This document shows, in pieces, positions 401 through 16,571 of a stretch of 64,000 nucleotides of DNA. The translations under genes and the position numbers were made by a program. Origin of the DNA: Dictyostelium discoideum (Eukaryota); contig CM000151.3 of assembly GCA_000004695.1 (NCBI GenBank), forward strand, positions 7,392,001 to 7,456,000, given 5' to 3'. Numbering within the stretch: the first letter of the stretch is position 1; each line of letters starts with the position of its first letter. The notes under the pieces are model-generated. The model made no database searches, was not told the DNA's origin, and saw nothing but the letters and a program-made list of their open reading frames with translations.

Positions 401-1264
401 TTATTGTTCTAATTTATCAGATATTTCATTTAATTTATTTGCAGTTTCTTTTTTTGTATCATTATATTTTTCATTTAGATCATTTGATAATTCATCAGAT
501 TTCTTTTTTAAATCATTAGAGACTTCAGTACCTTTAACTTTTAATTGTTCAACCTTATCATTTGCGTCATCTACTATATCTTCACCTTTTTTCTTTAAAT
601 CAGTTGTCAATTCACTTGCTTTATCTTTTGCTTCTTCATATTTTTTAGATCCATCTTCTTTTAAGTCTTCACCTTTTTTATTTAAATCATTTGTAATTTC
701 ATTTGCTTTATCTTTTGCTTCTTCAACTTTGTTTGAAGCATCTTCTTTTAAGTCTTCACTTTTTTGCTTTAAATCATTTGTAATTTCATTTGCTGTCTCT
801 TTTACATCTTCAACTTTTTTAGAGCCATCTTCTTTCACTTGTTCACTATTGTCTATTGCTCCACTAATTATTTCATTTGTTTTGGTTTTCAATGTTTCAT
901 ATCCTTCATTCATTACATTGGTGGTTGTATTGTACATATTCACTGCTGCATCTTTTGTAACCTCTACTGCTGTTGAAATTGAATCTGAAACATATTTAAC
1001 ACCTTCATTAATTGCATTGGTTGTTTCATTATAAACATTTGCACCTTTTTCTTGGGCTAATTCAACTGCTGTTTTACCTGTTGAAATTGCATCATTTTTT
1101 AAAGTTTCAACTTTTGATTAATTAAAAAAAAAAAAAAAAAAAATAAATAATAATAATAATAATAATTAATGTTAATATTATTATTTTATTGATAAATAAT
1201 TAAATATAAATAAAAAAAAAAAAAAATTACCTTGTTTATTTAAACTATTATCATTATCAGCCAT
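401..1264 (-). CDS. LEA-like / amphipathic 11-mer repeat protein; two exons complement(join(401..1110,1231..1264)) with a short AT-rich intron
   Basis: Exon 1 reads MADNDNSLNKQ, followed by a GTAAT donor. An AG acceptor at 1111-1112 puts exon 2 in frame with the 180-aa ORF (401..943). The protein has repeated KEDxSKKVEExKxxANEITNDLxKKxEDL units typical of LEA group-3-like repeat proteins. Confidence 0.55.
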
Positions 1265-2280: not shown

Positions 2281-2461
2281 TCAATAGATAGTATCTTCTG
2301 AAAATGGATATTTGTCGGGCCGCCCTACAAAACCTGATATTTGTAAAATAAATTAACGTTGGAAGTCTAACTGTTAATCTTCTAAAAAAAATATAAATAA
2401 GAATCCTCAAGATGTCTATGAAATGATATTTAGTAATCCAATAGAAATAATATTATTTGTC

Positions 2462-2527
<66 letters not shown>

Positions 2528-2745
2528 TTTTTAATTTAAAATAAATAATATGTAATAAATATTAATTATGAACAAATATGAACAGTATTCTTTTATTTAT
2601 ATTAAATAAGTTGCATTTAGTTTTTTTATTTTTTGGTAATTTTAGTTAAAATTGATACCTTGTGATAATGGCATAGTATTACCATAGTTGATTGTATTTG
2701 TACTACGACGGCAAACTGTTTCCGGCTGTCTGAGCCAATTATTTA
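2281..2745. repeat. Copy 1 of a ~450-bp dispersed repeat ('repeat A'). Its 3' part (about 2640-2745) duplicates the last ~100 bp of ALDH7 coding sequence and its stop codon.
   Basis: The sequence is near-identical to 5040-5345 and, more divergently, to 8101-8330. Examples are 'ttttccaatcaatagat...tttagtaatccaatagaaataatat' and 'ttggtaattttagttaaaattgataccttgtgataatggcatagtattaccatagttgattgtat'. Confidence 0.8.
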
Positions 2746-2899
2746 CAAAAGAAGGTTTAGTATTAAATGAAAAATCTCATAATAGAAACAGGTACTAAAA
2801 TATACTTTTTCAATAATATAAAAATCATTGTATTTATTAGATATTTAAAAGTTAATTATGTAAAATATTAAAAAAGTAAACAGTGATCTATTTTTTCTT

Positions 2900-3990
2900 T
2901 ATCATTTTCTAATAATTTCAATTGTTTGATTAAAACCATCTACTGAATCTGAAAGAGTTGAATTTGAATCAACGTAAATATTATTTTAATCATAATTATG
3001 ATATCCAAATGAGAACCTTTACGATAAAATCTTGTATAGGTTTTTTTTATTTCTAAAAAACTAGAAAACATAAAGATGGTGTTTTAATCTTTTTCAATTG
3101 TTTTCTTTAATCTTGATGCTTGTTGTTTTACATATGAAGGACCAACTTTTATTTTTGGGTGACCGTGCCAATAGGTACCATGGAATTCCATTACTATACT
3201 ATCATTTCCATTTTGTAAAAATCTTTAATACAATGAAATTCCAAACCATCTTCTGAATCTGAAAGAGTTGTATTTGAATCAACGCAGTAAATATTATTTG
3301 AACTATAATTAATTTTCAAATTAGAACCTTTACGATAAAATCTTGTATGGGTTTTGTTATTTTTAAAATACCAGCAAATTAAAAGATGGTGGTGTTTTAC
3401 AATTCCTAAATCTTTTTCAATTGTTTTCTTGAAGATTGTTCATTTTCATTTAAAGGGTCAACTTTTGATTTTGGGTGGCCAATAGGTACCATGTTATTCT
3501 ATTCTATACTATTATTTCCATTCTTGACCTGACACATCTGGATGAATGAAAACACAATCTTTAAATGGAATACGCAGGGTGTTTAATGTTTTGCATATAT
3601 AAGCGACTGCAGCTTTGCTTGTACCTGAAATATTACAATATGGACAAACACAATCAGATGAAGGATTATTTAAAATATTTTGGTTAAGAAAATCAATTCT
3701 TGTAATAAATCTTCTTTTTGTAAGATCTTTAATACAATGAAATTCCAATTTAATAAGAGAACCTGGTGTATACATATCACCTTCTGGTTTTTCGATTAAA
3801 TATTGTGATAATTGAATGCAATTGTTGTTAATAGATTTTGACGGTGGTACCACTAATCTTTGTTTGTACTTTGGACATGGACAACCATTTTCAAAAAACA
3901 ATGGCTCAACTAAAAGATACATTTGTAAAAATTACTATTATTGTCTCCATGGTAATTATATAAACTTTTACCTAATTTATTGTTGAACAT
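2900..3990 (-). pseudogene. Degenerate, truncated copy of a zinc-ribbon + Vsr-like endonuclease gene (copy 1), with internal tandem partial duplications at 2900-3220 and 3230-3530.
   Basis: The spliced reading complement(join(3512..3909,3972..3990)) gives MFNNKL|VEPLFFENGCPCPKYKQRLVVPPSKS...CVCPYCNISGTSKAAVAYICKTLNTLRIPFKDCVFIHPDVSGQEWK*. Relative to copy 3 it lacks the VDGF...IEFHGAYWHGHP nuclease core through a ~57-bp deletion. Two rearranged downstream copies of the C-terminal segment are present. A 62-nt GT..AG intron follows a 19-nt first exon. Confidence 0.5.
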
Positions 3991-4137
3991 TTGAAGTAAT
4001 AGGTTTATCAATTTTTTGAGTATTATTATTTAATGATGTGGTTTGATTTGTGGCATCATTTCTTCCATCTATTAAAACTTGATTGTTTTCAATTGTTTTA
4101 GATTATAATATGTCTGTATTTTAAATTTAATTCTAAC

Positions 4138-4180
<43 letters not shown>

Positions 4181-5039
4181 TATTATTATTTTTGTTTTTA
4201 TCAAATTTGAATAATAAAAAACTATAAAAAAAAGGCGTTTTGGGTCGATATGGGGCGACACTGTTTTTTTTTTTGACTCAAAACACCTTTTTTTAAAAAT
4301 AATCAACACCTTAATTTTTCTCTTTTAGCAAATATATATTTAAAATTATAAAAAAAAAAAAAAAAGGCCATTTTTATATTTAAAAATAATATAAAGACTG
4401 ACACTTAGATTGGAGTTTGTCAAAAAAAATTTTTTTAAAAAATCTATTTTTTAAAAAAAAAAACTGGAAATAGGCATTAAAAAAATTAAATTAAATTATT
4501 TTTAATTTACTTCCACACCAGGAGTGTGAGTCTATAAAAATTATAAAAGCTAATTCCTTGAAATAAATGAAAAAAGGAATTGTCTTTGAAATTCCTTTGA
4601 CCATAAATTTTTATAAAAATAGTACAAATGATTGAATGTATATATTTGTTATATTTTAAAGAGTGGTGATAATTGAGAATGGATTTAAACTACTAGCCAG
4701 TGGTTGGTCATGATTCCAACTACGTTCTAAAATTAATGAACATTAATGAAAACTCTTCTTTACAATCTTTTGAATCTTAAACTTAATAATTATTATTATT
4801 ATTATTATCATTATTATTAAAATTATAATTATTAATAATAAAAAAAATAGTATTATTGTTAATACATATTTTCATATTTCTTTAAATTTTATATCACAAT
4901 AATGAAGGGAACAAAATATAATGGTTCGAGCAAAAAATGAAAAAAAAAAAAAAATAAAAAAAAATAATTAAAAAAAAAAAAAAAATAAAAAATAAAAAAA
5001 TTTGGGCAAATTTGAAAATATATTTTCCTAAACGGAACA

Positions 5040-5345
5040 AACCTGGATTTATTGACACAGATGATCTAATCATGTATTGAGACCAATAGAAATAATATAA
5101 TTTGTCAAAAATAACAATAATAATAATAAATAAATATTTTTAATTTAAAATAAATAACATGTAATAAATATTAATTATGAACAAATATCAACAATATTCT
5201 TTTATTTATGTTATGTAAGTTACATTTGGTTTTTTTTTTTTGGTAATTTTAGTTAAAATTGATACCTTGTGATAATGGCATAGTATTACCATAGTTGATT
5301 GTATTAGTACTACGACGGCAATACTGTTTCCAGCTGTCTGAGCCA
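5040..5345. repeat. Copy 2 of repeat A, overlapping the 3' end and 3' flank of the ALDH7 gene. This is probably the ancestral context.
   Basis: It aligns to 2440-2745 and 8220-8330. It contains the ALDH7 stop codon and C-terminal codons. Confidence 0.8.
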
Positions 5346-7415
5346 GATTCTCTACCACCTCCGGTCTCTTTTTCACCTCCAAAGGCACCACCAATTTCAG
5401 CACCGTTTGTAGCTACATTTACGTTAACTATACCACAGTCAGATCCGGTAGGTCCAAGCCATTTGAAGATATTCTTTTGATTGTTTGTGAAGAGGGAAGA
5501 TGAGAGACCTTGTGGGACTTCATTATTCCAGGCAAAAGCATCGTCAAGATTTTTGAATTTCATTATGTAGAGAATTGGAACAAAGAGTTCAGTCTTTACG
5601 ATTGGAGCATCATGTTCAATGGCAACGACGGTTGGTTCAACAAAGTTTCCACCACTGATATCGAGTTTATTACCACCAATGACGACCTTACCACCTTGCT
5701 TTTTTATTTCTTCAAGACCTTCAGTGAATTCTTTAACAGCGCTTTGGGTGTGGAGTGGACCTACTAAAACACCTTCTTCAAGTGGATTACCGATTTTAAT
5801 GGTTTTGTAGGCTTTGGTTAAACGTTCCAAAATGGTGTCATACAATGATTCGTGAACGAATAAACGTCTACAAGTGGTACAACGTTGTCCAGTGGTACCA
5901 ACAGAAGCAAAGAGAACGGCACGGAGAACGAGTTCAATATCAGCATCTTCAGCAACAACGATGGCATTGTTACCACCTAATTCGAGGATGGTCTTACCAA
6001 AGTAACCGTGGACGGTACTAGAGATACGACGACCGACTTCAGTTGAACCAGTGAATGAAATTAAACCGAAACGTTTATCTTGAATCATTTGTTCACCAAC
6101 GGTACGACCTGGACCAATGAGGACACAACAGACGGCTGGGTCGACATCATTTTCAACTAAAACCTTTTCAATGATTTTGCTAACGGCTAATGTAATGAGT
6201 GAAGTGGTGGAGGCACCTTTCCATAATTGGACGTTACCGCAAATCATTGAGATTGCAGCATTCCAACCAAGTACGGCACATGGGAAATTGAAAGCAGTAA
6301 TGATACCAACTAAACCTAATGGATTCCAGGTTTCCATTAAAATGTGATTTGGACGTTCAGATGGCATCACTTGACCATTGATTGATCTACTTAAACCAGT
6401 TGCATAATCGCATACGTCAATGAATTCTTGTACTTCACCTTTAGCTTCAATGTAAATTTTACCCATTTCTAATGAAATTAATTTTGATAATGGTTCAATT
6501 TTTTCTCTCATGGCTTGACCAATTAATCTAACAATTTCACCTCTTCTTGGAGCTGGTGTTAATGCCCATTTTACTTTTGCTGCTAACATTGCTTGAATAC
6601 ATGTTTCATATTCTTCTGGTGCAGCCTATAAAAAAAAAAAATTATTAAATAAAAAAAAAATTAAATATGTTAATTATTTATTTATTTTATTAATTTTATT
6701 AATTAATAATATGATAATTTTATTAATTAATAATATGTTTAATTTTATTAATTAATAATATGATTAATTTTATTAATTAATAATATGTTTAATTTTAATT
6801 AATCATGTGATTATTTTTATTTATTGACCATGTGATTAATTTTATTTTTGATCATGTGATCATTTTTATTTATTGGTCATGTGATTAATTTTATTTATTG
6901 ATCATGTGACTAGTTTTATTTATTGATCATGTGATTAATTTTGTTTATTAATCATGTGACTAATTTTATTTATTGATCATGTGATTATTTTTATTTATTG
7001 GTCATGTGATTATTTTTATTTTTTGATCATGTGATTATTTTTATTTATTGATCATGTGATAATTTTATTTATTAATCATGTGATTAATTTTATTTATTAA
7101 TCGTATGATTAATTTATTTTTTTTAAATTATTTATATATATTAAATATTTTATTTAATGTTTATTTGATTTTTTTTTTTTTTTATCCATTTTTTTTTTTT
7201 TTTTTATCCATTTTTTTTTTTTTTTTTATCCATTTTTTTTTTTAATTTTTTTTAATACATACACCTCTAACAGTTGCAATAACTTTATTATTTGTTGGAT
7301 TTAAACATTTGATGATTTCACCAGCACCTCCCCATTTTCCATTGAAGACTCCATCATTATTTTCAGCTTTAATGCCTAATTCAGCCAAGAATGGATATTC
7401 GTTAAAGGTAGTCAT
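5249..7415 (-). CDS. Aldehyde dehydrogenase family 7 (antiquitin / alpha-aminoadipic semialdehyde dehydrogenase, ALDH7A1 orthologue); complement(join(5249..6625,7263..7415))
   Basis: The protein aligns along its whole length to antiquitin. Matching segments include [109 protein letters not shown] and [15 protein letters not shown]. Exon 1 reads [51 protein letters not shown], followed by a GTATGT donor. The acceptor ttttatAG precedes [13 protein letters not shown]. The intron is about 637 nt. Confidence 0.85.
6640..7140. repeat. Intronic minisatellite in the ALDH7 intron. About 4 copies of 'attaattaataatatgat(a/t)aattttatt' are followed by about 13 tandem copies of a ~25-bp unit 'tgatcatgtgattaattttatttat'.
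   Basis: The periodicity is directly visible. Each unit carries a CATGTG (E-box-like) core flanked by the TGATCA palindrome. Further repeats of tatccatttttttttttt (x3) follow at 7180-7250. Confidence 0.9.
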
Positions 7416-7885
7416 TTTTTAATTTATCTGTTTTATTAGAAAATGTTTTTTGTGAAGTGAAAAAAAAAAATTTTGAAATTTAAATTTTTTTAATTTTATG
7501 TGACGACCAGAAAAAAAAAAAAATAAAAATAAAAATAAAAAAAAATAAAAAAAAATAAAAATAAATAAAAATAAATAAAAAATTAAAAATTAATTAAATT
7601 TTAAAAAAAAGTCTGTGATTTTTTCGTTTTTGTTTTTTTTTTTTTTTTTTTATACAAACCACCTTCATAAAGTTTAAAAATATTTTATGTCGACATATTT
7701 TAACCTTCCTTTTTTGTAAAAACTATTTCCCACCAAAGAATTTTGTAAAATAGAAGTTCCCATTTATAAATTATTTTTTTTAATTTTTTAATTTTATTTT
7801 TTAAAAAGAAATCAAGTTTTTTTTTTTATTTTTTTTATTTTAAATTTCCAATTAAAATAAATTTGATTTTATTTGGTAATGATCT

Positions 7886-7922
<37 letters not shown>

Positions 7923-8100
7923 AAAATAAAAAAAATGTGTTACGGACCTAAAACTTTGAACTAAAAAAAAAAAAAAAAATGTTTTCTGTTTGTAAAAAAA
8001 AAAAATTTTTTCAGTTTGTAAAAAAAAAATTTATTGATGGTTTATTTTTAGAAATATATATATATATATGTGGTTATTTATTTTTAATAATAATTTGATT

Positions 8101-8330
8101 TTTCCAATAAATAGATTGTATTTTCTGGAAACGGATATTTGTTTGCCCTTTCAAAACTGTTATATTTGTAAAATCAATTATTTGATCACTGGAAGTTTAT
8201 GAAATGACATTTAGTAATCCAATATAAATAATATTATTTGTCATAAATAATAGTAATAATAATTAAAATTAAAGAAATAAATATTAAATTTTGAAATAAA
8301 TAATATGTAACAAATATTAAGTTAATGTTT
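8101..8330. repeat. Copy 3 (partial, diverged) of repeat A, immediately upstream in plus coordinates of Vsr-like gene copy 3.
   Basis: 'ttttccaataaatagattgtattttctggaaacggatatttg...tttagtaatccaatataaataatattatttgtcataaataatag' matches 2281-2520. Confidence 0.7.
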
Positions 8331-8697
8331 GAAAACAAACATTTCAAAAAAAAAAGGTTAAAATAATTTAATTTTAAATTTATTTATAGATTTTTTTTTT
8401 TGAAGATTTTTAAAAGATACGATACAAGATTTAAAGAGGCTAATAGATTTTAGTATATTTGGTTTTACAACGTTTAATTCAAAGACGAATTACTCATTAC
8501 TCAATTTCGCAACAACAATTAAACATTATACACAAAATATTTATCGATCCTCATTAGAGATATTTAAACAAATAAACTTCTTGTATTTGTAGTCCCCATG
8601 GCAATATCGTTTTCATTTGAGAACAAAACAATCAAAAATAATTACATAAATAAAATAAAATATATTATACATAGTTTTAATTATATTTGTTTATTGT

Positions 8698-10366
8698 TTA
8701 AAATCTTGTATAGGTTTTGATATTTTTAAAATACCAGCAAACTAAAAGATGGTGTTTTACAATTTCTAAATCTTTTTCAATTGTTTTCTTTAATCTTGAT
8801 GCTTGTATATTTTCATTTAAAGGGTCAACTTTTAATTTTGGGTGACCATGCCAATAGGCACCATGGAATTCTATTACTATACTATTATTTCCATTTTTTA
8901 TAAATCCATCTACTCTATAGGATTTGGAGCCATCAGCACATTTTAAAATATATTCTTGGCCTGACACATCTGGATGAATGAAAACACAATCTTTAAATGG
9001 AATACGCAAGGTGTTTAATGTTTTGCATATATAAGCGACTGCAGCTTTGCTTGCACCTGAAATATTACAATATGGACAAACACAATCAGATGAAGGATTA
9101 TTTAAAATATTTTTGTTAAGAAAATCAATTCTTGTAATAAATCTTCTTTTTGTAAGATCTTTAATACAATGAAATTCCAATTTAATAAGAGAACCTGTAT
9201 ATTATTGATTTGAATCTTCTATTAGAATCTTTAATATTACGAAATTCCAATTTAATAAGAGAACCTGGTGTATACATATCACCTTCTGATTTTTCGATTA
9301 AATATTGTGATAATTGAATGCAATTGTTGTTTATAGATTTTGACGGTGGTAACACTAATTTTTGTTTACACTTTGGACATGGACAACCATTTTCAAAAAA
9401 CAATGGCTCAACTAAAAGATACATTTGTAAAAATAATCCAGTTGGAAAATAAGTTTTACAAACAATTCTTACTTTGATTCTTGATTTAATTGATAATTTT
9501 ATATAAAATTCTAAATCAAAGAGATACGCTGGTTCACCAGCAAAACCTTCTTCAACTGATTGTTCAATATATTCTTGGTCATTCTCTTTTCCAAACTGTT
9601 TACTAGTATTTGATTTATAATCTAAGTATTCACACTGACCACCATCATCTTTATGTATATTATCATCTTCAAGAAAATCTTGATCTTTACTACATTGATT
9701 TGAATTTGTTAAATATGGATAACCATCATTGAATTTTATAAAATTTTCTTTAAATTCTGGAAACACATCAAATATAGATTTTGATTTAAAACAAATTAAA
9801 ATCCTTCTTATAAACAATGAGTGGTTTGGAAGATTGAATTTTAAACAAGATTCACCGATTTCACTTCTTTTAGTAGGAACTTGATCATACATAACACTTA
9901 AATGACCACCACAGATTTCGCAAAACTCTATACCATTTAAATAGATTAAATCAAACTTTTTAATGATCTTTTGTTAAATAAACTTGAAATTAAACCTGCT
10001 TCAACATATTTATCAATTAATGTAACCATTTCAATACGTGAAGGTAAAGGATGATCTTTTTTAATGAAATTTTGACAATAATAAATTCTACCATTTGGTT
10101 TTACTGATATTAATTTTTCATTTTGCCAAGGATTATTTGATAAATAATTATGTTCTAATATGGTAATTTGAGGCATTTGTGTGTCCCTTATCCTTTGCAC
10201 GTTCCTCTAGTGGATTAGATTGATTTTTATTTGGTGCAACGATATGAAAATGTGTTACTATAAAATTTATAGCATCTTTTAATTTAAATGTAAAAGTACA
10301 ACTATTATCTTTTTTAGACCAAGTTTGTGGAGAGAATAAATAATAAATGGAAAAACCAAACTCCAT
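8698..10366 (-). pseudogene. Longest copy of the zinc-ribbon + Vsr-like (very-short-patch-repair-type, PD-(D/E)xK) endonuclease gene family. It is interrupted by frameshifts or stops and a 72-bp internal tandem duplication.
   Basis: Three consecutive minus-strand ORFs in different frames cover the gene (10148..10366, 9946..10200, 9182..9892, then 8698..9180). The C-terminal segment is ...CPCPKCKQKLVLPPSKS...CVCPYCNISGASKAAVAYICK...YRVDGFIKNGNNSIVIEFHGAYWHGHPKLKVDPLNENIQASRLKKTIEKDLEIVKHHLLVCWYFKNIK. The motif VDG...FHGxYWHGH...R.D...LVxW resembles the Vsr endonuclease core FVDGCFWHGHHC...RD...WRVLxVWE. The SLIKLEF-coding segment is tandemly duplicated at 9182-9260. Confidence 0.55.
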
Positions 10367-11619: not shown

Positions 11620-13092
11620 ATGTTAAATTTACTATTTAAACAAACTAATTTTATAAATAAAATATCAAAAAATATTCAAAATAATAATATAAATTTAATA
11701 AAACCATTATCAATAAATTATTTAAATTTATTTTCAAATAACAATAATAATAATAATAATAATAATTTTATAAATGTAAATAATATAAATAATAATAATT
11801 TTAAACAAATATATAGTAATAAATGTTTTTTTTCAAATAAAAAAGAAAAAAAAATTAAAAAAGAAAAACAATCGATTTTAAGAGAAAAAAGTAAAAAAAG
11901 AAAACTTATAATTGAAAATACAGATATAAAATCATTACCAAAATCAGATTTAATTTATGGTCAAACAAATGAAGATTTAAAAAAGTTAAATTATATTATT
12001 GGTGAAAAATCAGCAAAAAGAATAAAAGAATCAACAAGAGCAGATTGGCATGTAAGACAACAACAAAATAAAATATCATCATCATCGACAAATTATTTAT
12101 TATTAAAATCTAAATTATCAAAAGATTTAATTAATGCACCATTATCAGAAACTCTAAAAATTAAAAAACAATTAGAAGAATTAGAAAAGAATGGAAAAAT
12201 ATCAAATATTGATCCAAATTCAAAGAATCAAAAATTTAAAAATCAACAATTTGATCCAAAACAATTGGAAAAACTTAAAGAATTAAAATTGGGTAAATTT
12301 AAACAAAATAAACCAAAAAGGGGTACAACAAAATTGGAAACCATTAAAAAAGAAGTTTCAAAAGGTATTGAAAGATTTTTTGATTCAAAAATGAAATTCA
12401 TTGGTGCTGCAAAGAATATAGATTCATTCCTCCCTGAAACTCTACCAGAGGTCGCATTCATTGGTAGAAGTAATGTTGGTAAATCAAGTTTAATCAATGC
12501 ATTAACTCAACGTGGTTTAGCCAAAACTTCAGATAAACCTGGTCAAACTCAGAGTATAAATTGGTTTGAATTAGGTTCAACACTTTATTTAGTGGATTTA
12601 CCAGGCTACGGTTTTGCATTTGCCAAAGAGACATTGGTTGAACAATGGAGTGATATTACTATTCACTATTTAACCGAACGTAAATGCATTAGTTGTGTTT
12701 TCATATTAATAGATTCACGTCATGGTTTAAAAGATAGTGATCGTAATTTACTATTGGAATTGGATAAAAAGAAAATTAAAACTCATATAATCCTAACAAA
12801 AGCAGATTTAACAAAACCAGAAGATCTTGTAAAAAGAATTTCAATCACAAATCAAGAGATTCAAACCAATTATCGTTATTCAACAACACCAGTACTACCA
12901 ATTAGTTCTAAAAATTTATCTGGTATCTCTGATCTATCAAAATTAATTAAAGTTATGAAATTAAAAGTAAAACCAATTAAAATTAATCCAAATTTACAAT
13001 CAAAACAAATTTTATCACCACAAGATTTTCAATTAAAAAAATTAAAAAATCTGGAAAAGAAAAAAGAAAAATTAAAAAAATTAGTTAAATAA
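11620..13092 (+). CDS. EngB/YihA/YsxC-type ribosome-biogenesis GTP-binding protein with a long Asn/Lys-rich N-terminal extension (probably organellar)
   Basis: The G1 motif is FIGRSNVGKSSLINAL. The G3 motif is LVDLPGYGFA. The G4 motif is TKADL. All sit in EngB order and spacing. Confidence 0.8.
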   Translation: MLNLLFKQTNFINKISKNIQNNNINLIKPLSINYLNLFSNNNNNNNNNNFINVNNINNNNFKQIYSNKCFFSNKKEKKIKKEKQSILREKSKKRKLIIENTDIKSLPKSDLIYGQTNEDLKKLNYIIGEKSAKRIKESTRADWHVRQQQNKISSSSTNYLLLKSKLSKDLINAPLSETLKIKKQLEELEKNGKISNIDPNSKNQKFKNQQFDPKQLEKLKELKLGKFKQNKPKRGTTKLETIKKEVSKGIERFFDSKMKFIGAAKNIDSFLPETLPEVAFIGRSNVGKSSLINALTQRGLAKTSDKPGQTQSINWFELGSTLYLVDLPGYGFAFAKETLVEQWSDITIHYLTERKCISCVFILIDSRHGLKDSDRNLLLELDKKKIKTHIILTKADLTKPEDLVKRISITNQEIQTNYRYSTTPVLPISSKNLSGISDLSKLIKVMKLKVKPIKINPNLQSKQILSPQDFQLKKLKNLEKKKEKLKKLVK

Positions 13093-15806: not shown

Positions 15807-16512
15807 TATGTGTGTATATTATATTATTTATGTATTGGTTTTGTTTTTATTTTATTTTTTATTTTTTATTTTCCTATTAATTTTTAAATCGTTAATTTTT
15901 TTTTTCTAATTTTTTAAAAAAAAGGGATTAAAAATAAAGAAATAAATTATATCGCCAAACGTTTTCTTGAGAAAATAAATATAAAAATAAAAAAAAAAAA
16001 AAAAAACGAACGTTAGGATGAAATTTTTTTTTTTTAATTTTTTTTTTTAATTTTTTTAATTTTTTTTTTTTTTTTTTTTAATTTTGGGTAATTAAAAAAA
16101 TTAATTAATTAAACGGAAGTGAGTGAATTTACAATTGGATTATAATATTGACAATCTGAGCATTCAACATTGTTTAAAATTTTATAAATAGATTTTTAAA
16201 AAAAAAAAAAAAAATTTAGAAAAAGAGAGTTAAAACAAATAAAAAAAAACACAGAACAAATTAACTTTGAAAAAGGGTAGAAATTTCATGAAAAAATGTA
16301 ATGTATGAAAGCAATATTTCTTCGTTACAACAGTATAAAATGTAAATTAAAATATTATTATTATTGTTATTGTATGTTTTATTATGATATTACTCAACAA
16401 TATAATTAAATAAATTATTAAAATTAAATAAATAAATAAATATTAAATTAAATTATAAAAGTTAAATAAAATAAATATGAAATATATAAATATAAATAAA
16501 TAAATAAAAAAA

Positions 16513-16571
<59 letters not shown>

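Follow-up and report, generated by a model that had tools for sequence, protein, structure and literature searches.

What kind of gene left two related, disrupted copies on the minus strand around the Dictyostelium discoideum gene ALDH7? The copies lie in a stretch of 64 kb, here called the window (assembly GCA_000004695.1, contig CM000151.3, positions 7,392,001 to 7,456,000 of the forward strand). An earlier note on this DNA had described them as a decaying family joining zinc ribbons to an endonuclease resembling the very-short-patch-repair enzyme Vsr, and had guessed at a homing-nuclease-like or giant-virus-derived element, a guess that agrees with the nature of the relatives described below. 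The locus is probably what remains, decaying and locally duplicated, of a horizontally acquired, free-standing Vsr-like (EDxHD) homing endonuclease gene, most likely derived from a giant virus. The element very probably belongs to the Vsr-like (EDxHD) homing endonucleases, and its intact ancestral protein consisted of tandem DUF723/DUF4379 treble-clef units, a CxxC ribbon and a Vsr-type PD-(D/E)XK nuclease of ~110 amino acids (aa).

The most complete of the copies, copy 3, corresponds to a hypothetical protein gene of strain AX4, DDB_G0277059, presumably on chromosome 2, for which a literature search gave no papers; the frameshift-corrected translation of copy 3 (8698-10200, minus strand) matches the AX4 protein with 94% identity over 90% of the query. 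Using the window protein P0001 as phmmer query, 1.84 billion representative proteins were searched exhaustively, resulting in 14 matches: three near-identical Dictyostelium fragments and 11 remote relatives with E-values from 8e-9 to 7e-4, all 11 aligning over the C-terminal ~140 residues. Two alignments are used below, A1, an alignment and profile of 12 C-terminal domains, and A2, a family alignment of 109 sequences. Open reading frames (ORFs) and tblastn confirm the minus-strand position at both loci, and the peptide motifs quoted earlier are all present where they had been placed. The features of copy 3 are as follows:

8698-10366, minus strand: copy 3, the most complete copy, overlapping DDB_G0277059 (393-aa model, start at 10029)
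10366-10148, 10200-9946, 9892-9182 and 9180-8698, minus strand: the four ORF pieces of copy 3, split by frame changes or stops
9368-9472, minus strand: degenerate DUF723/DUF4379-type treble-clef unit 1, VRIVCKTYFPTGLFLQ...GCPCPKC, placed by hhalign to P0001 and without a direct Pfam match
9385-9368, minus strand: CPCPKC motif
8701-9126, minus strand: last zinc ribbon (CVCPYC) and Vsr-like PD-(D/E)XK nuclease domain, 142 aa, placed by alignments A1/A2, hhalign, AlphaFold and fold matches
9084-9067, minus strand: CVCPYC motif
8919-8902, minus strand: YRVDGF motif
8874-8839, minus strand: IEFHGAYWHGHP motif
8748-8728, minus strand: LLVCWYF motif
8955-8953 (E58), 8910-8908 (D73), 8871-8863 (E86/H88), 8850-8848 (H93) and 8772-8770 (D119), minus strand: putative catalytic residues

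The A1 profile retrieves 147 proteins, with E-values down to 8e-49; DUF723 or DUF4379 is present in most of them, and JGI names a few 'G:T-mismatch repair DNA endonuclease (very short patch repair protein)'. When the top metagenomic member, P0016, was used in tblastn, 675 phage records were obtained, several genomes having 3-11 copies. The family, which had been considered unplaceable, is a common viral one and not an orphan. The consensus of the 11 remote relatives comprises, in order, C-P-x-C, x3-G-x-S-K-x-A-x2-W-L, I-x-H-A, G-E-x-x-I, V-D-G-F/Y, Y-E-F-H-G-x-Y/F-W-H-G-N-P, T-x-G-E-L-Y-x2-T-x2-R-E/D and G-Y-x-L-x3-W-E. As judged from these alignments, the C-terminal ~110 aa of copy 3 belong to this large phage and giant-virus family, for which there is no Pfam model. 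The possibility of a chance motif was rejected, as hundreds of viral proteins align over the entire domain and its predicted fold is that of a nuclease.

Regarding the zinc fingers, the family follows a common layout, where treble-clef repeats (DUF723/DUF4379) are followed by a CxxC and then by the nuclease, VDGF...EFHGxYWHG(N/H)P...TxxxD...W. The relatives bear 1-5 DUF4379 or DUF723 units upstream of the nuclease domain, and a Pfam scan of the family members finds DUF4379 in 66 of 109 and DUF723 in 61 of 109. Scanned directly, the window protein and its ORF pieces match no Pfam model, including those of DUF723/DUF4379 and Vsr, and an NCBIfam search was also without a match. By hhalign, the match between A2 and P0001 reaches back to residue 146 (146-251), covering two consecutive zinc-finger units, and the segments VRIVCKTYFPTGLFLQ (with VRIVC)...GCPCPKC and CVCPYC lie on the repeat unit Y.Y...V.I.C..HG.F.Q....H..G.GCP.C. 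Both cysteine motifs, earlier read as zinc ribbons, are therefore at the treble-clef positions of the family, and the ribbons of copy 3 are best described as putative degenerate DUF723/DUF4379 repeats.

Direct searches at the sequence level do not link the C-terminal domain to Vsr. The 160-aa ORF has no match by phmmer among PDB sequences, and the family profile retrieves there only spurious zinc-ribbon or thioredoxin-like matches and not Vsr. At the profile level the outcome was divided: the direct Pfam scan was negative, while hhalign against E. coli Vsr (query sequence identical to PDB 1CW0 chain A) gave probabilities of 74% for A1, 71% for A2 and 75% for A2 against a small Vsr alignment, with E-values of 2.5e-5 to 3.6e-5, each from a single pairwise comparison. 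All relatives in the Vsr-side alignment share at least 80% identity with E. coli Vsr, and the probability barely increased with it, from 71% to 75%. In the resulting register, IEFHGAYWHGHP is aligned with IFTHGCFWHHHH, TIEKD with NVERD and LLVCW with LIVWE, EFHG..WHG being paired with FTHG..WHH of Vsr. Scanning the 109 members with lenient thresholds gave sub-threshold Pfam matches to REase_MTES_1575 in 31, RAP in 14 and Vsr in 3 members, the best E-value to the Vsr hidden Markov model being 0.05; those matches seem to converge on the Vsr-like subgroup of the PD-(D/E)XK clan.

The predicted structure leads in the same direction. A single-sequence AlphaFold model was unusable, with a predicted local distance difference test (pLDDT) score of 39.6; modelled with the 109-sequence A2 alignment, the 142-aa domain reached a pLDDT of 78 and a predicted template modelling score (pTM) of 0.72, with the core above 90, and it possesses the restriction-endonuclease-like alpha-beta-beta-beta-alpha-beta core fold. 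Among the best 50 Foldseek matches in the PDB, nearly all are PD-(D/E)XK nucleases, including every match with a probability >0.5. The matches comprise Cas4, Bax1, Hjc, RecU, Vsr and cap-snatching endonucleases, Vsr (1cw0_A) having the highest query TM-score, 0.41, and the R2 retrotransposon endonuclease 9dou being a weak match.

The Vsr-like EDxHD homing endonucleases, to which the phage Hef-type homing endonucleases belong, are defined by residues equivalent to E25, D51, H64, H69 and D97 of Vsr (Taylor et al., PMC3239194). Copy 3 keeps all five candidate equivalents, E58, D73, H88, H93 and D119, the last of them being paired with Vsr D97 by hhalign. In the 12-sequence A1, E58, D73, H88 and H93 are invariant; in the 109-sequence A2, H93 alone is invariant and D73 nearly so, E58 and H88 being neither. 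The zinc ligands of Vsr (C66, H71, C73 and C117) are not kept, as the family has A/D, G, P and Y/E at those positions. Since the zinc site is lost and the Pfam Vsr model is not matched, the domain appears to be Vsr-like and not an orthologue of Vsr proper. Taken at that level, the Vsr-like nuclease proposed in the earlier note is supported by profile comparison, predicted structure, kept catalytic residues and the sub-threshold Pfam matches.

As to the source of the gene, neither protein search found a eukaryotic relative outside the D. discoideum complex, and the viral relatives are of two kinds. Those from phages are annotated 'endonuclease-like protein' or 'putative Hef-like homing endonuclease', as in a Klebsiella phage protein having four DUF723 units followed by ...ELDAAVP...LAIEFNGLYWH..., and family members are found in PHROGs phrog_22677, phrog_3339 ('homing endonuclease') and phrog_559. 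According to Barth et al. (PMC10448857), phage homing endonuclease genes contain DUF723-type zinc fingers as DNA-binding modules that are repeated and can be exchanged. The other kind comes from giant viruses: an IMG/VR scan gave 79 loci, many of them in giant-virus metagenome bins (GVMAG), and the two proteins closest to the Dictyostelium domain are encoded on contigs L083 and L082, with dense intron-less genes including giant-virus hallmarks (TFIIS, glycosyltransferase 25 and rhomboid neighbours in L083, Evr1/Alr sulfhydryl oxidase in L082). A fold search of BFVD also found proteins of Orpheovirus, Pithovirus, invertebrate iridescent virus 6 (273R) and Fadolivirus ('restriction endonuclease type II-like'), besides phage proteins named 'putative VSR endonuclease' or 'DUF559'.

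Dictyostelium feeds on bacteria, and a bacterium or bacteriophage could have been the donor, with the remaining history unchanged. The abundance of the family in phages (675 records) and the DUF723 units of most metagenomic relatives, typical of phage and Neisseria proteins, would agree with such a donor, and a best-match ranking over 110 aa is weak evidence against it. The scores point the other way, as the AX4 nuclease domain has a single weak tblastn match among phages (41 bits, E 6e-3), compared to 58 bits for L083, 52 for L082 and up to 51 for GVMAG loci. In addition, the Dictyostelium domain has the motif form EFHGxYWHG(N/H)P in common with the giant-virus-type proteins, whereas the Hef-like Klebsiella phage protein has EFNGLYWHDE. 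A phage or bacterial donor is thus held to be unlikely, and a giant virus is the most likely donor on these sequence comparisons.

The condition of copy 3 depends on how its frame breaks are read, for which three further features are required:

9267-9198 and 9197-9128, minus strand: diverged 70-nucleotide (nt) tandem duplication, from blastn self-comparison and pairwise alignment
9995-9928, minus strand: intron 1 of the AX4 annotation, 68 nt, GTTTAA...ATAG, with a weak 5' splice site; otherwise a stop or frameshift between ORF pieces
9240-9159, minus strand: intron 2 of the AX4 annotation, 82 nt, which takes out most of the 70-nt tandem duplication

The frame breaks and the duplication had been noticed before, the latter as 72 bp and separately from at least two frameshifts; its size is 70 nt and, because 70 is not a multiple of 3, the duplication is itself one of the frameshifts. 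The 393-aa AX4 gene model spans the two disruptions by means of the predicted introns. The strong splice-donor consensus of Dictyostelium is GTAAGT, from which the GTTTAA of intron 1 is far. In L001 (GCA_054859355.1), another D. discoideum assembly, the segment that is duplicated in AX4 is single and in the other variant form, so intron 9240-9159 looks like a recombination scar. Copy 3 would encode a protein only if both doubtful introns are spliced, and it is probably a pseudogene or near one. The syntenic copies of two other strains contain nothing equivalent to the N-terminal ~270 aa of copy 3 (window 9601-10366, with CEICGG at 9922-9905), and in protein searches the sole detectable homologue of this part is a 129-aa fragment from read-archive assemblies, P0003.

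Comparing strains, the syntenic regions of L001 and L084 have the same layout as AX4: a CfaA-like gene, a nuclease copy, ALDH7, a second nuclease copy and an ALDH7 3' fragment. The copies at the two sites cover aa 1-547 and 327-547 in AX4, 271-547 and 273-547 in L001 and 482-547 and 405-547 in L084, and the first copy of L001 has a +1 frameshift inside EFHGAYWHG. The ratio of nonsynonymous to synonymous substitution rates (dN/dS; Nei-Gojobori) of copy 3 against the other nuclease copies is 0.68-0.91, calculated on 10-12 synonymous differences, compared to 0.09 for the neighbouring ALDH7 and 0.11 for a GTPase gene. The different truncation in three strains, together with this ratio, indicates that the Dictyostelium copies are decaying, as the earlier note had claimed. 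A paralogue was found at a different locus of 'Dictyostelium cf. discoideum' (P0005, L002 8492-9283); its nuclease domain shows 35-36% identity, its 263-aa ORF runs through zinc ribbon and nuclease without interruption, all catalytic residues are kept, and it may be a functional member of the family. Its neighbours are Snf7, Cullin_binding and RhoGEF genes.

These data also bear on the view that the host has domesticated DDB_G0277059 and that the gene is functional, perhaps encoding a nuclease of DNA repair or of a restriction-like type, with expression through the two annotated introns and the second copy alone being a pseudogene. The annotation yields a continuous 393-aa product with GT..AG introns, copy 3 retains both CxxC motifs and the five residues of EDxHD type, the paralogue of D. 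cf. discoideum has an intact 263-aa ORF, and dN/dS is <1. Nevertheless, the nuclease ratio of 0.68-0.91 is far above the 0.09-0.11 of the neighbours, and in the two other strains the syntenic copy is truncated (aa 271-547 and 482-547) or frameshifted within the nuclease core. The first intron has a non-consensus donor, the second is simply the 70-nt tandem duplication, which shifts the frame and occurs neither in copy 1 nor in the other strain, and copy 3 has lost the conserved Glu of the terminal 'WE' motif of the family. Domestication is therefore regarded as improbable. The earlier note is incomplete in that the locus was already annotated, as the hypothetical DDB_G0277059.

Copy 1 and the DNA around it are rearranged. 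Searched with the corrected 547-aa copy-3 protein, the window has one further locus by tblastn (3931-3338, aa 327-547, 76% identity) and a match to its partial duplicate at 3221-3027, with no other copies of the nuclease family. The features on this side and around ALDH7 are:

3338-3932, minus strand: copy 1, C-terminal ~220 aa only, from tblastn, blastn self-comparison and alignment
2933-3243, minus strand: tandem partial duplicate of the 3' end of copy 1 (earlier 'copy 2'), reading MEFHGTYWHGHP at 3191-3156
2480-2746, minus strand: duplicated ALDH7 3' end, with the last 35 codons and ~165 nt of flank, 90.5% identical to 5085-5355
5249-7415, minus strand: ALDH7, a host gene between the two nuclease copies, main exon 5249-6589
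8074-8320, minus strand: segment downstream of copy 3, 65-77% identical to 2243-2565 and 79% to the ALDH7 3' flank at 5083-5174

Copy 1 is a dead pseudogene fragment. The deletion of ~57 bp earlier thought to remove its nuclease core exists; it measures 59 nt and takes out EYILKCADGSKSYRVDGFI, the strand bearing the catalytic Asp (D73), and not EFHG..WHG. Pairwise alignment reveals more frameshifting indels of 1, 5 and 4 nt, besides a 3-nt deletion and a 3-nt insertion, both frame-keeping, and an in-frame stop. Instead of the two rearranged partial duplications reported before, blastn self-comparison finds one tandem partial duplication with a period of ~310 nt (2933-3212 against 3243-3522, 78% identity). 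The identity between the two AX4 copies is patchy by blastn, with stretches of 98%, 93% and 84-86%, which suggests gene conversion between them. 'Multicopy' is thus correct for two local copies and one partial duplicate in the window, and not in the sense of a dispersed family.

The repeat of ~450 bp that had been seen at both copies and at ALDH7 (repeat A, 2243-2746) is indeed made of related segments; self-comparison shows it to be a mosaic, mostly the duplicated ALDH7 3' end, with only ~90-100 nt common to all three. A 22-residue ALDH7 C-terminal peptide is identical at 2710-2645 and 5317-5252, and the duplicated and the genuine ALDH7 3' ends bracket copy 1. Repeat A thus consists for the most part of a locally duplicated ALDH7 3' end and is not a transposon terminus.

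A eukaryotic transposable element, with repeat A as terminal or target sequence and the nuclease acting like an integrase (as the restriction-like endonuclease of some retroelements does), is highly improbable. A related segment does follow each copy (2243-2565 and 8074-8320), and the R2 endonuclease is among the weak fold matches. Repeat A contains 35 ALDH7 codons plus the ALDH7 3' flank and is host DNA, with no evidence of a mobile-element terminus. Moreover, the window has no reverse transcriptase or transposase ORF, its inverted repeats are only low-complexity A/T runs, and no copies lie elsewhere in it; protein searches find a single annotated AX4 protein of the family, and all relatives are stand-alone viral or phage genes. 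The transposon was rejected on two grounds, namely that repeat A is ALDH7 DNA and that dispersed copies are lacking in the window and in the AX4 protein searches.

ALDH7 itself is divergent at silent sites. It was compared among three D. discoideum-complex assemblies (window 5249-6589, L001 9900-12700 and L084 9600-12600), where its silent-site divergence (dS) is 3-10 times that of neighbouring genes and its dN is low; between AX4 and L001, dS is 0.34, against 0.03-0.06 in flanking genes, and in the GTPase gene (11620-13089) it is 0.03-0.065 among the strains. In all three strain pairs, dS of the main exon climbs toward the 3' end, from 0.15-0.19 in the first quarter to 0.5-0.9 in the last, which adjoins copy 1 and the duplicated 3' end. 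Such a gradient would be compatible with co-conversion, or with breaks that were repaired again and again close to a nuclease target; ectopic conversion involving the decaying 3' fragment, exchange of paralogues or old haplotypes would account for it equally well.

A stronger proposal is 'intronless homing', in which the nuclease acted in the nucleus as a free-standing homing endonuclease, and may do so even now in some strains, on a target within or close to the ALDH7 3' end. Successive rounds of cutting, repaired by recombination and accompanied by co-conversion, would account at once for the copies flanking ALDH7, the duplicate of its 3' end that brackets copy 1 and the rise of dS. This proposal is improbable.

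Other observations were made in and around ALDH7. In L001, at ~12390-12640, an extra AT-rich segment of ~250 nt, an intron or an insertion absent from AX4, breaks the ALDH7 frame before the last ~12 codons, and the public L001 gene model joins ALDH7 and the downstream nuclease copy into an 860-aa product. The ALDH7 intron region (window 6669-7140) contains ~16-19 tandem 25-nt repeats, followed by poly(T)-ATCCA repeats at 7166-7250. The surroundings are AT-rich, with a G+C content of 12-30%, compared to ~40% in the ALDH7 exon. Farther away, a 180-aa ORF (401-943, minus strand) is composed of repeated charged units of ~22 aa (KEDxSKKVEEAKDKANEITNDLKKKGEDL...), LEA or apolipoprotein-like, its internal repeat being visible in the L001 comparison (16263-16539 against 709-430).

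Returning to the decayed homing endonuclease gene, its history can be proposed by analogy. The zinc-finger array of the ancestral protein would have bound DNA, and its Vsr-type, Mg2+-dependent site would have cut it. As in Vsr and I-Bth0305I, D73 and neighbouring acidic residues would hold Mg2+, H93 of the WHG motif would act as the general base, and D119, on the next helix, would complete the site. In an allele without the gene, such an enzyme would cleave a specific site, and recombinational repair would then copy the gene and flanking DNA into that allele. The gene would have entered the D. discoideum lineage horizontally from a giant virus, and local duplication would have left copies flanking ALDH7, with the second ALDH7 3' end around copy 1 as a rearrangement scar, possibly a product of break repair. 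Deletions, frameshifts and small duplications, together with patchy gene conversion, would since have eroded the copies.

Several points weigh against this history. The hhalign register pairs D73 with Vsr D55 and not with the catalytic D51, so that its equivalence to D51 is a proposal from spacing only, 11 against 12 residues to the xHG motif. The origin from a giant virus rests on best-match scores over ~110 aa and not on phylogeny. All three strains carry copies at both sites, of very different extent, and the presence/absence polymorphism typical of active homing is not seen; the viral relatives are multicopy and sporadic in occurrence. A dN/dS of 0.6-0.7 on few substitutions is compatible with weak constraint, and the apparently intact P0005 suggests that the family may not be purely junk in the genus and may be older, or better kept, elsewhere in it.

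With those points considered, the locus offers a function-level annotation for the orphan DDB_G0277059 and draws attention to a large viral nuclease domain without a Pfam model. It would also document that a homing endonuclease gene of viral type passed into a nuclear chromosome of a eukaryote and decayed stepwise across strains. ALDH7 represents a local hotspot of rearrangement and silent-site divergence, which may be a footprint of nuclease activity; if co-conversion is its true cause, the locus would be a rare example of homing without an intron in a eukaryotic nucleus, and one that could be tested in a tractable model organism.

Among known systems, the EDxHD homing endonucleases I-Bth0305I (PDB 3R3P) and phage Hef share with the element a C-terminal Vsr-type PD-(D/E)XK domain, the E...D...H...D set and modular DNA-binding repeats before the domain. 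They are free-standing or intron-borne selfish genes in phages, and the phage relatives of the family are annotated Hef-like. Besides these similarities, there are differences: the DNA-binding part is made here of treble-clef zinc fingers (DUF723/DUF4379) and not of NUMOD or helix-turn-helix modules, and E-F-H-G-x-Y-W-H-G-(N/H)-P keeps the equivalent of Vsr His64, where I-Bth0305I has Asn. Unlike its phage counterparts, the Dictyostelium element is nuclear-chromosomal, eukaryotic and degenerate, and it is known here from sequence and predicted structure.

E. coli Vsr (PF03852, PDB 1CW0) has the same fold and the same order of motifs, (V/P)D(G)F...(F)xHGxxWH...R/K-D...hydrophobic strand to W(E). 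Compared to it, the family lacks the zinc site (C66, H71, C73 and C117) and the N-terminal Vsr helix, has E86 where Vsr has F62, is fused to zinc fingers and fails the Pfam Vsr model; the Dictyostelium element has no link to Dcm methylase or T:G repair. Regarding the DUF559/REase_MTES_1575/RAP group, which forms the Vsr-like branch of the PD-(D/E)XK clan, no family member matches at curated thresholds, and RAP domains are organellar RNA-binding modules whose context and partners differ from those of the Dictyostelium element.

The repeated DUF723/DUF4379/CapR zinc-finger modules fused to a nuclease are shared with the phage T5orf172/CapR-DUF723 homing genes, which are multicopy in viral genomes and located at genetic-exchange boundaries (PMC10448857); the nuclease is T5orf172 (GIY-YIG-like) in those genes and a Vsr-like PD-(D/E)XK domain here. 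Relative to these systems, the novelty is modest and consists of a nuclear eukaryotic relic of a viral gene type, an EFHGxYWHGNP subfamily without a Pfam model and a function-level reading of DDB_G0277059.

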